A stretch of 64,000 bases of DNA, taken from assembly GCA_964016885.1 (NCBI GenBank), contig OZ024741.1, forward strand, positions 60,512,001 through 60,576,000. Reading direction: 5' to 3'. The DNA is from Eledone cirrhosa. Its lineage: Eukaryota. The notes below the pieces were generated by a model, which did not search any database, was not told where the DNA came from, and saw only the letters and a program-made list of their open reading frames with translations. Of the stretch, positions 56,585-64,000 are shown piece after piece. Position numbers and translations under genes: made by a program. Positions within the stretch are counted from its first letter, which is position 1; each line of letters opens with the position of its first letter.

Positions 56585-57166
56585 TAAATAATCACAAGTG
56601 TTCCTTATATTGCTCGGAAAGAGTTTTGGGGATTAAATCCACATCAGGGTTCATTGCTCGCAAAAATATCTTGTTTTGATTTTGCAGCAGGTCAAGGGAG
56701 GTAACTCTGGTCGGTGTTAGGGCAGTCTTTCCCGGACAGTTTTATTATAACGCCCGCTTTGTCCGTTTGTAAACAAACTGACAGCCTGAATTTATGCCGT
56801 ACGGTGTTAAGGCAACCACGGTACCTTTTTGTTCAACACTGACACAGGAACGATGTACTAGTTTCAAGCTTCTTAGCTATCATCAGCACTGTATACCCTT
56901 CTGCCAGGTGGTTGAACGTTCGAAAGTATATACTTTCCTTATGAAAATTAACGGCTGAGCAGCCTAATTTGCATATCGAGTGAGTTCAGTCGGCCAGGCG
57001 CACCGAAAACGATAAGTTGTAATAAAATGAAAACGAAATTTCATTTCTCACTCTTAGTACGGCACTTACTTAAATGTAAGTAAGTATGTATACGTACATA
57101 CATATATGTATACAGACGTACAATAGCATGCATATATATATATATATATATATATATATATATATA

Positions 57167-57760
57167 TAAAGGACGTAAAATAAAAAAATATTTTTTTAAA
57201 AAAAATTTAAAAAAAATTTTTTTCTTACTTAAATTTTCACTCCAACTAATTAGTTTCTGCAATGGGATAAAGACAAATCACTGATTTGTCGAGCAAACTT
57301 GCCAAAACCACTTCTAAAAAAAAAAAACTAGCCTCTGTGTCACGTGATTGATTCTTTAGAATCGGCCATTTGACTTGAAGCAGTGAGAATTTCGGTACAT
57401 AGAATTCAGTCCTCGCAAGCTGTTCGATCTACCGAATTATTATTATTTTTATATGAGCCGCCAGTGTCCGCGCATTGCCTGGAGACTTAACTGAGAATAG
57501 ACTTCCTGATGACGCAATGAATTCTCGACAGTTGAATTACGTAACTGTCTTTATCCCATTGCAGAAACTAATTAGTTGGAGTGAAAATTTAAGTAAGAAA
57601 AAAATTTTTTTTAAATTTTTTTTAAAAAAATATTTTTTTATTTTACGTCCTTTATATTATTGTTCTGCATTCTCCTGCATTGAACCACCTAGGTACTATG
57701 ACATAACCTGTGTATTTGCTGGCATGGGCGTGCATCTGTGCGCTTATGTTAGTTGATATA
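57167..57760 (+). mobile_element. Family R2 element (short inverted end plus monomer) inserted in the (TA)n of array monomer 1
   Basis: 57167-57273 is the reverse complement of ~57547-57655; homologous to the 35 kb and 46 kb repeats. Confidence 0.85.
57501..57582 (+). ncRNA. Hammerhead motif, family R2 variant
   Basis: acttc-CTGATGA-cgcaatg..gacagtt/aactgtc..cattgca-GAAA-ctaattag-TT-ggagt. Confidence 0.8.
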
Positions 57761-61100: not shown

Positions 61101-64000
61101 GTGAGTTCAGTCGGCCAGGCGCACCGAAAACGATAAGTTGTAATAAAATGAAAACGAAATTTCATTTCTCACTCTTAGTACGGCACTTACTTAAATGTAA
61201 GTAAGTATGTATACGTACATACATATATGTATACAGACGTACAATAGCATGCATATATATATATATATATATATATATATATATATATATATATATATAT
61301 ATATATATATATATATATTTATATATATATATATATATATATTTATATATATATATATATATATATATATATATATATATATATATATATATATATATAT
61401 ATATATATATATATATATATATACATACAGGTACACATACATATATGTCCGTATCAGTTTAGCGGACGTTTATTATAACGCCCGCATTGTCCTTTTGTAA
61501 ACAAACTGACAGTCTGAATTTATGCCGTACGCTGTTAAGGCAACCACGTCACCTTTTTATTCAACACTGACACAGGAACGATGTACTAGTTTCAAGCTTC
61601 TTAGCTATCATCAGCACCGTATACCCTTCTGCCTGATGGTTGAACGTTCGAAAGTATATACTTTCCTTATGAAAATTAACGGCTAAGCAGCCTCATTTGC
61701 ATATCGAGTGAGTTCAGTCGGCCAGGCGCACCGAAAACAATAAGTTGTGATAAAATGAAAACGAAATTTCATTTCTCACTCTTAGTACGGCACTTACTTA
61801 AATGTAAGTATGTATGTATACGTACATACATATATGTATACAGACGTACAGTAGCATGCATATATATATATATATATATATATATATATATATATATATA
61901 TATATACACATACAGGTACACATACATATATGTACGTATCAGTTTAGCGGACGTTTATTATAACGCCCGCTTTGTCCGTTTGTAAACAAACTGACGGCCT
62001 GAATTTATGCCGTACGGTGTTAAGGCAACCACGTCACCTTTTTGTTCAACACTGACACAGGAACAATGTACTAGTTTCAAGCTTCTTAGCTGTCATCAGC
62101 ACCGTATACCGTTCTGCCAGATGGTTGAAAGTACGAAAGTATATACTTTCCTTATGAAATTTCATTTCTCACTCTTAGTACGCCACTTACTTAAATGTAA
62201 GTATGCATGTCTACGTACATACATATATGTATAGAGACGTACAGTAGCATGCATATATATATATATATATACATGCAGGTACACATACATATATGTACGT
62301 ATCAGTTTAGCGGACGTTTATTATAACGCCCGCTTTGTCCGTTTGTAAACAAACTGACAGCCTGAATTTATTCCGTACTGTGTTAAGGCAACCACGTCAC
62401 CTTTTTGATCAACACTGACACAGGAACGATGTACTAGTTTCAAGCTTCTTAGCTTTCATCAGCACCGTATACCCTTCTGCCAGATGGTTGAACGTTCGAA
62501 AGTATACACTTTCCTTATGAAAATTAACGGCTGAGCAGCCTAATTTGCATATCGAGTGAGTTCAGTCGGCCAGGCGCACCGAAAACGATAAGTTGTAATA
62601 AAATGAAAACGAAATTTCATTTCTCACTCTTAGTACGGCACTTACTTAAATGTAAGTATGTATGTATACGTACATACATATATGTATACAGACGTACAGT
62701 ACCATGCATATATATATATATATATATATATATATATATATATATATATATATATATATATATACATACAGGTACACATACATACATGTACGTATCAGTT
62801 TAGCGGACGTTTATTATAACGCCCGCTTTGTCCGTTTGTAAACAAACTGACAGCCTGCTTTTATGCCGTACGGTGTTAAGGCAACGACGTCACCTTTTTG
62901 TTCAACACTGACACAGGAACGATGTACTACTTTCAAGCTTCTTAGCTATCATCAGCACCGTATACCCTTCTGCCAGATGGTTGAACGATCGAAAGTATAT
63001 ACTTTCCTTATGAAAATTAACGGCTGAGCAGCCTAATTTGCATATCGAGTGAGTTCAGTCGGCCAGACGCACCGAAAACGATAAGTTGTAATAAAATGAA
63101 AACGAAATTTCATTTCTCACTCTTAGTACGCCACTTACTTAAATGTAAGTATGAATGTCTACGTACATACATATATGTATACAGACGTACAGTAGCATGC
63201 ATATATATATATATATATATATATATATATATATATATATATATATATATATATACATACAGTTACACATACATATATGTACGCATGAGTTTAGCGGACG
63301 TTTATTATAACGCCCGCTTTGTCCGTTTGTAAACAAACTGACAGCCTGAATTCATGCCGTACGTTGTTAAGGCAACCACGTGATCTTTTTATTCAACAAT
63401 GACACAGGAACGATGTAGTAGTTTCAAGCTTCTTAACTATCATCAGCACCGTATACCCTTCTGCAAGATGGTTGAACGTTCGAAAGTATATACTTTCCTT
63501 ATGAAAATTAACGGTTGAGCAGCCTAATTTGCATATCGAGTGAGTTCAGTCGGCCAGGCGCACCGAAAACGATAAATTGTAATAAAATGAAAACGAAATG
63601 TCATTGCTCACTCTTAGTACGGCACTTACTTAAATGTAAGTATGTATGTATACGTACATACATATATGTATACAGACGTACAGTAGCATGCATATATATA
63701 TATATATATATATATATATATATATATATATATATATATATATATATATATATATATATATATATATATATATATATATACACATACAGGTACACATACA
63801 TATATGTACGTATCAGTTTAGCGGACGTTTATTATAACTCCCGCTTTGTCCGTTTGTAAACAAACTGACAGCCTGAATTTATTCCGTACGGTGTTAAGGC
63901 AACCACGTCACCTTTTTGATCAACACTGACACAGGTACGATGTACTTGTTTGAAGCTTCTTAGATATCATCAGCACCGTATACCCTTCTGCCAGATGGTT

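Follow-up and report, generated by a model that had tools for sequence, protein, structure and literature searches.

At the right-hand edge of a 64,000-nt stretch of the Eledone cirrhosa genome (the window; C2:60,512,001-60,576,000, contig OZ024741.1 of assembly GCA_964016885.1) lies a non-coding tandem array whose units carry, on the minus strand, motifs of the hammerhead ribozyme (HHR). The locus raises the question of whether such a repeat is a satellite spread at the DNA level or a self-processing RNA element and, if the latter, how it is copied. Judged from its sequence, the array is likely an in-place-expanded copy of a high-copy HHR repeat acting as a retrozyme that lacks long terminal repeats (non-LTR retrozyme), and we hold it very probable that this repeat is a retrozyme mobilised by Penelope-like elements (PLEs). 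The preliminary description of the window had proposed a non-LTR retrozyme mobilised by PLE enzymes, and three lines of evidence support it: covariation of the HHR stems, two fixed 3' ends with inversions at (TA)n, and strand-biased A>G changes. The array itself is an ageing copy, and the strongest evidence for the life cycle comes from its dispersed relatives, above all a sister family that we call D.

The hammerhead repeat in the window and in the genome

The window covers the edge of the array: it contains the left part (56,741-64,000, minus strand) of a ~48-kb tandem array of about 77 HHR-bearing units, assigned to subfamily A, which extends past the window to about C2:60,616,500. Across the whole array, 58 of the 77 HHR anchors have an intact core and stem III. 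A complete unit, which served as reference, lies at 58,777-59,273 (minus strand) and consists of 434 bp (58,777-59,210) plus an internal (TA)n tract (59,213-59,273) that forms the tip of a long predicted hairpin and measures 19-192 bp in the two big arrays of the genome. Units are spaced 363-607 bp apart, with a single 1,233-bp gap that spans an insertion, and two window units are missing ~85 bp. Mean divergence within the window array is 4.1%.

Fourteen minus-strand type I HHR motifs were found between 56,855 and 63,981, with the form GGUG-CUGAUGA-[14-nt stem II]-GAAA-CUAG-UA-CAUCG. Stem I has 6 bp. Stem II has 4 bp above a U-U mismatch, which is replaced by A-U or C-U in four of the copies, and the palindrome ACUAGU makes up stem III. 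The HHR of the reference unit (58,928-58,976, minus strand) is predicted to cleave after GUA, between 58,937 and 58,936. Eight of the 14 keep the core and the C15.2-G16.2 pair; the other seven of these have predicted minus-strand cleavage sites at 56,855/6, 58,088/9, 58,573/4, 60,976/7, 61,583/4, 62,068/9 and 62,431/2. The stem III pair is broken in four (minus-strand sites at 59,433/4, 59,926/7, 62,924/5 and 63,415/6), and two carry G12>C (60,437/8 and 63,942/3, minus strand). Intact HHRs do occur in consecutive units, for example at 58,119, 58,604 and 58,967. The 14 motifs are not independent, because a 7-unit higher-order repeat of 3,495 bp (57,929-61,423) recurs from 61,424 to the window end at 64,000; units 2-8 and 9-14 differ by 1 substitution in the ~2.3 kb compared with TA tracts collapsed. 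The number of motifs given in the preliminary description stands, with the corrections that only eight copies are intact and that a 7-unit stretch is duplicated. The U-U mismatch at 10.1-11.1, which it raised as a caveat, is only a weak one: axolotl HHR_Amex2, whose helix III is also short, carries a U-U at this place in stem II too and nevertheless cleaves, better as a dimer (PMC7229834), and family D has G-C at this position.

The Rfam scan of the window, a check named in the preliminary description, gave no gathering-level match for the HHRs of the array. Among the best 150 of 193 rows at E ≤ 10, the sole ribozyme rows were to HH9, at 21.9 bits (E 0.092, gathering threshold 52), and fell on the two copies that have A-U at the base of stem II. 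Rows for microRNA families on the array were dismissed as noise from the TA repeat.

Genome-wide searches, which covered the 3.0-Gb assembly, supplied the copy number that had been called for. The core pattern ending in GUA has 12,448 exact matches and a reversed-pattern control has 0, so the motif of the array is not due to chance. A second pattern, ending in GU[C/G/U], has 11,557 matches, mostly from family D (control 0), bringing the two families to ~24,000 motifs in all, with zero divergence within some insertions. The first family comprises subfamilies A (that of the window), B (~92%), C (~80%) and a minor E. Units of the sister family D are 466-470 bp long, have no TA tract, carry G10.1-C11.1 and have GUU or GUC cleavage sites; D diverges from A/B by ~35-38% over the 280-nt segment compared, in a comparison across A-D that included some truncated units. 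The element is thus high in copy number, both dispersed and arrayed, and has no LTR organisation; primer-binding sites and polypurine tracts were not searched for separately. Unit length and the (TA)n tract, put forward earlier as distinctive, are not so, since reported retrozyme consensus lengths span 51-972 bp (bioRxiv 10.64898/2026.07.22.740005) and family D does without the tract.

Comparison of natural variants indicates that the HHR is under selection. We aligned 15 variants from subfamilies A-E, comprising 12 of 13 that were seen at at least two loci (one of them by way of the window copy) and three chosen singles. The core is constant across them save for N7 (U or C) and N17 (A, C or U, never G), in line with the core conservation expected of a functional ribozyme in the preliminary description. 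Stems I and II covary among subfamilies, with both sides changed in 7 of 14 pairs, and pairing holds in 91% of cells across the 15 variants, compared to 24-47% in slid controls; this slid or shuffled control is not a probability. As the variants are related to one another, few events are counted here rather than 15. When monomers of A, B and D were folded as circles (five monomers, 25 shuffles each), all gave the same branched shape, with z-scores of -9 to -13 in the HHR sense vs -3 to -6 in the antisense for the four cases with a short TA tract.

Insertion ends and the Penelope-like signature

How dispersed copies end was surveyed at 67 A/B/C loci, made up of 55 from the first pattern matches on C1 and the 20 best DNA matches, less overlaps. 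On the HHR-sense strand, 3' ends fall at two sites, a long end at reference position ~317 (n=56) and a short end at ~376 (n=43), with 24 others that derive mostly from chains split at the internal TA tract. On the reference unit, the long site corresponds to 59,093-59,096 and the short site (~372-386) to 59,148-59,160, a small A/C-rich hairpin, both on the minus strand; we take them as putative reverse-transcription starts 1 and 2 of dispersed copies. The ~60-nt interval between them forms a tail, and TA adjoins 94 of the 99 classified long or short ends. The 5' ends (n=51) are scattered, the copies being either 5'-truncated and direct or inverted head to head. We checked whether these 51 ends pile up where the HHR would cleave (reference position 160); none does so, the nearest being at 148 and 173.

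Inverted copies whose ends can be classified pair the two ends without exception. Among 38 inverted A/B/C chains, both ends could be classified in 25, and all 25 had one long and one short end; in the remainder one end was of the other type (11 chains) or the chain ran off the fetched DNA (2 chains). In family D, for which 40 new loci were picked by their long end, 23 were inverted and every classifiable insertion was again long+short (20/20), never long+long; one of the remaining three ended at 383, one was of another type and one lay at the edge. Genome-wide, there are 1,970 exact junctions of the D long end with TA. Tails, inversions and TA targeting have been described for PLEs (PMC8557442, PMC3846280, PMC11167929), and the tail of the Anolis PLE spans the distance from one internal reverse-transcription start site to a second (PMC11167929). 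The end anatomy of our element therefore fits a PLE tail, present at one end only, combined with head-to-head inversion. A second array of ~53 kb (C2:122.633-122.687 Mb) retains one long and one short end, which points to expansion of just one arm of a single inverted insertion. At some insertions (L040/L045, L212/L222) the target DNA seems to be duplicated in inverse orientation, the left flank recurring reverse-complemented at the right.

Strand-biased changes, a U6-type element and the proposed life cycle

If the template is RNA, its history may be recorded in the copies. A variant of a 12-mer described below carries three A>G changes, from which came the idea of A-to-I editing. In a first pass, variants shared between copies were A>G 15 times vs T>C 5 times in D and 6 vs 2 in A/B. 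The 40 D loci, fetched after the editing idea had been recorded, served as a replication set, in which shared changes on the HHR strand were A>G 22 times vs T>C 3 times (p 1.6e-4); unshared changes were balanced at 19 vs 18, and G>A outnumbered C>T among them (37 vs 16). At locus L262, an AAA>GGG change with further A>G changes is present in all four copies and in both arms, and the 35-mer with these clustered changes has exactly four matches in the assembly, all in this single insertion. When A/B/C copies were searched with targeted patterns, two neighbouring A>G changes in the 12-mer turned up at seven loci and two neighbouring T>C changes at no locus. Of these seven, locus L333 shows 22 changes of A>G and 2 of T>C, mostly common to both arms, and locus L330 has five shared A>G changes. 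In a B insertion at C17:32.61 Mb, two units that differ by A/G alternate as ABAB. Where the TA tract of dispersed A/B copies is interrupted, the change is A>G in 28 insertions and T>C in 4, compared to 24 vs 24 events in flanking genomic TA runs. Insertions can also be long and uniform: of the 63 full units of one D haplotype, found at five loci, 56 are identical, and arms reach 17 units. These patterns suggest that the template is HHR-sense RNA and that one molecule feeds both arms and is read repeatedly. The L262 pattern is as expected from an ADAR-edited RNA circle reverse-transcribed round and round, and a circular template is in our judgement probable.

The 12-mer itself, TATGCAAATTAG (59,045-59,056, minus strand, in the reference unit), matches exactly the element at -77 of a U6 gene in the same genome and is a candidate promoter element. 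In units of A-D it precedes the core by 88-100 nt on the HHR strand, and 76 of 91 insertion-level records have it unchanged; its octamer-bearing version is present in 11 window units. A TATA-like box inside a hairpin (59,003-59,018, minus strand) starts 42 nt downstream of the octamer start. In the host, TATG(C/G)(A/T)AAT(G/T)AG at -76 to -78 together with TATA at about -30 precedes three distinct U6 genes, the best U6atac match and the single MRP match, that is, 5/5 distinct intact-looking type-3 promoters; it is absent at -77 from the U2 upstream regions examined and from most lower-scoring U6 and U6atac matches, which are likely pseudogenes. The first T4 run lies ~290 nt past the cleavage site in the short-TA monomers of A, B and D that were folded. 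On these sequence grounds, the case for the 12-mer being the promoter element of the unit slightly outweighs the case against. As side observations, U6 genes form a tandem array of ~1.8-kb period at C19:31.78-31.84 Mb, in some units of which an inserted repeat separates the gene from its upstream element, and U2 forms an array of ~2.2-kb period at C3:307.35-307.45 Mb. Many pseudogene-like U6 and U6atac copies (L197, L198, L201-L203, L208 and others) have no upstream element, and in some the 3' end is immediately followed by another repeat.

Together these observations suggest the following life cycle. Transcription would begin from the U6-type element, ~10-15 nt upstream of CUGAUGA, and run into the next unit, so that each monomer from cleavage site to cleavage site would hold the promoter of the next unit. 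The HHR is predicted to cleave after GUH, probably best in dimers formed through the ACUAGU palindrome, and a host ligase would close the unit-length RNA into a circle, as is established in other retrozymes. The structured RNA would then be A-to-I edited, as the strand bias suggests, and a PLE reverse transcriptase and endonuclease would insert it into (TA)n, each arm starting at a different one of two fixed sites that are separated by ~60 nt. With the enzyme circling the RNA, the units of a new insertion would at first be identical. Some insertions, including the window array, later grew by DNA duplication, as seen in their higher-order repeats, and lost ribozyme integrity. Leaving the promoter aside, we regard the whole scheme as likely. 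For the fullest version, a retrozyme with a host U6-type promoter whose ADAR edits prove that a circular sense RNA (monomer or dimer) is reverse-transcribed by rolling circle by a Penelope enzyme from two sites, we put the chances at about even.

Several results weigh against this scheme. Counted by insertion, the D replication set falls to 9 A>G vs 3 T>C, and the shared sites cluster; they are also not enriched in predicted pairs (21/32 vs 88/148). In A/B, to which the window array belongs, shared variants outside the TA tract show no significant bias (9 vs 6, and 6 vs 2 in the first pass). One of the seven loci with a double A>G, L329, has the change in only one of three copies. TA-tract interruptions in the two big arrays are A>G in none and T>C in 14, and the G's in the tract are not independent events because they are partly inherited features of subfamilies. 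Several insertions carry one common haplotype, and haplotype sharing with tandem duplication after insertion means that homogeneity alone needs no circle; identity within vs between insertions did not separate a circle from a homogeneous master. The shared changes could also reflect a source allele missing from the assembly and tandem duplication at a later time. In Xenopus, one of nine predicted retrozyme dimers cleaved in vitro (bioRxiv 10.64898/2026.07.22.740005). As to which PLE is the partner, the unit showed no similarity beyond TA-rich matches to the loci of three neighbouring PLE families, Hydra-like and Neptune-like, the survey being confined to these. Among the best 100 of 103 matches to a motif with longer stem II, judged by motif only, no homologue in a PLE pseudo-LTR (pLTR) was found; as a route to the partner this pattern was abandoned, the matches listed being mostly indel variants of the same families, and so was a canonical G10.1-C11.1 pattern, which gave family D and one unrelated match and no PLE.

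Other readings keep part of this scheme or replace it. The same element could be mobilised with a PLE helper from an uncleaved linear multimer transcribed from homogeneous arrays, the ribozyme acting at another step. Mutating the HHR of the Anolis PLE has no effect on its insertion in vitro, for which RNA that has not been processed serves as the main substrate (PMC11167929). Homogeneity is already a property of young source arrays, and local tandem duplication is observed. Edits on a linear multimer should, however, vary from unit to unit, whereas the clustered A>G changes are common to all copies of an insertion and one such haplotype is private to its insertion. The pattern of period 2 fits a dimer circle, and arms of 12-17 identical units exceed the nine variant units at the sole locus with an intact octamer upstream, the unplaced contig C744, where two units of another haplotype, the second with the intact octamer, precede them. 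We consider a linear template unlikely. Less probable still is a satellite or a DNA element akin to Helitrons or miniature inverted-repeat transposable elements (MITEs) that multiplied as DNA and whose hammerhead is a vestige of the terminal repeat of a PLE. The higher-order repeats and dead HHRs of the window array would suit it, PLE termini can give rise to satellites (bioRxiv 10.64898/2026.07.22.740005), and such spread does fit the later growth of this array; against it stand the compensatory evolution of the HHR, 3' ends that are fixed while 5' ends are ragged or inverted, and strand-specific A>G changes that are unlike DNA mutation, unshared variants being symmetric between A>G and T>C.

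More serious, if still doubtful, is the possibility of a retrozyme in which the 12-mer is an arm of a hairpin or an element for RNA polymerase II (Pol II), transcription is by read-through, and the A>G changes come from reverse transcriptase or polymerase error or from selection for G-U wobble. The spacing from octamer to TATA is 42-43 nt in the units vs 46-48 in host U6, U6atac and MRP, and a T5 run, which should stop RNA polymerase III (Pol III), precedes the long end in 23 of 47 D insertions. The haplotype with three A>G changes in the element makes up 69 units at seven loci, the element lies within a predicted stem, and a review states that metazoan retrozymes seem promoterless (PMC7761336); newt satellite 2 is cited as having an snRNA-type promoter and Pol II (PMC2220036). 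Speaking for a promoter are the exact match to host type-3 promoters, its retention in A-D and its orientation, which is the one needed for transcription of the HHR. Selection for wobble would also favour C>T over G>A, for which the shared counts are 2 vs 6, and runs of the AAA>GGG type arose independently in two families.

Neighbouring elements and known retrozymes

The TA tracts of the window array have taken up both PLE and MITE insertions. A MITE-like element of ~490 bp with ~115-bp terminal inverted repeats (57,168-57,654) sits in the TA tract of unit 1 and is foreign to it; repeat copies akin to it at 35,200-36,660 and 46,260 contain CTGATGA and no convincing HHR. Abutting the left end of the array is the 3' end of a Hydra-clade-like PLE (56,330-56,740, minus strand), a separate high-copy family. 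Farther on, a 5'-truncated Hydra-clade-like PLE of 3.9 kb with a 754-aa open frame is inserted in the array at C2:60,612,077-60,616,312; its clade assignment is based on DKT, RW-type and CxCX5C motifs, and its open reading frame (ORF) has a GIY-YIG Pfam match below threshold and no PDB match. Many young copies of its family exist, with frames of 900-970 aa, and the family shows an inverted and tail structure of its own. A 2.3-kb PLE fragment (L015:2422-4713) that includes a GIY-YIG-like frame along with a minimal HHR motif lies in the TA tract of another unit. No reverse transcriptase or GIY-YIG ORF was found in the array region of the window, and the ORFs adjoining the array belong to inserted PLEs. 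Elsewhere in the window, another HHR family, whose stem II is long, occurs on the minus strand at 5,450-5,520, 52,285-52,360 and 55,185-55,260; the copy at 55,247 is probably the terminal-repeat ribozyme of a Hydra-like PLE, since it is just upstream of the start of a Hydra-like PLE ORF (54,514-54,993). The window also contains non-LTR retrotransposon ORF fragments (8,758-15,761, minus strand, with a piece of 857 aa), a Hydra-like PLE piece (32,865-33,479) and a tRNA gene (30,101-30,173, 71.5 bits, anticodon loop UAU).

On testable features the element is a non-LTR retrozyme (compare PMC7229834, PMC7761336, PMC4209133). The metazoan retrozymes of coral, Mytilus and axolotl (Cervera and de la Pena 2020, PMC7229834) have the same non-coding tandem units with one type I HHR each, the same low GC content and a self-paired predicted circle. 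Circles and cleavage were demonstrated there and are predicted from sequence here, whereas the genomic copies studied here reveal how insertions are built and display A>G footprints as well as a U6-type element of the host, and A/B bear an expanded (TA)n. Xenopus retrozymes (Li, Clavereau, Pollet, bioRxiv 10.64898/2026.07.22.740005) are described with the same dependence on PLEs and as monomers, dimers and long multimers; the link to PLEs is there co-occurrence and pLTR homology and here an insertion signature, pLTR homology not having been found in the PLE loci examined. The words 'tail' and 'promoter' are absent from the main text of that preprint. Endonuclease-positive PLEs (Anolis Poseidon, PMC11167929; the Hydra clade, PMC8557442; Adineta, PMC3846280) share with our element two internal reverse-transcription starts, a tail at one end, head-to-head inverted copies, AT or (TA)n targets and a type I HHR; unlike them, the element has no ORF, a tail of ~60-65 nt vs their 30-40, and many identical tandem units per insertion. 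Internal promoters are cited in PMC2220036 for newt satellite 2 (snRNA-type, Pol II) and the schistosome HHR satellite (Pol III); unlike in these, the candidate element here matches the upstream motif of U6, U6atac and MRP in its own genome.

In the literature searched we found no cephalopod retrozyme and, for retrozyme copies in general, no account of tails, of U6-type elements or of marks left by editing; the supplements of PMC7229834 and of the Xenopus preprint, which could list a cephalopod case, were outside this search. Editing is raised merely as a possibility in PMC7229834, the Xenopus preprint states that the mechanism of retrozyme mobilisation remains to be elucidated, and whether inverted PLE insertions derive from a sense or an antisense template was left open in PMC3846280. 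The class is known, but rolling-circle reverse transcription by PLE enzymes has so far only been proposed for retrozymes. The genomic copies described here appear to offer unusually direct evidence of the life cycle: the PLE tail rule, without exception in classified cases, and edit-like marks shared across an insertion make both questions of mechanism testable from assemblies alone, a test that extends to other retrozyme-bearing genomes. If correct, the U6-type element would revise the statement that metazoan retrozymes seem promoterless (PMC7761336), and the copies as a whole would document in the genome how a retrozyme lives and tell which strand PLE enzymes copy in inverted insertions.

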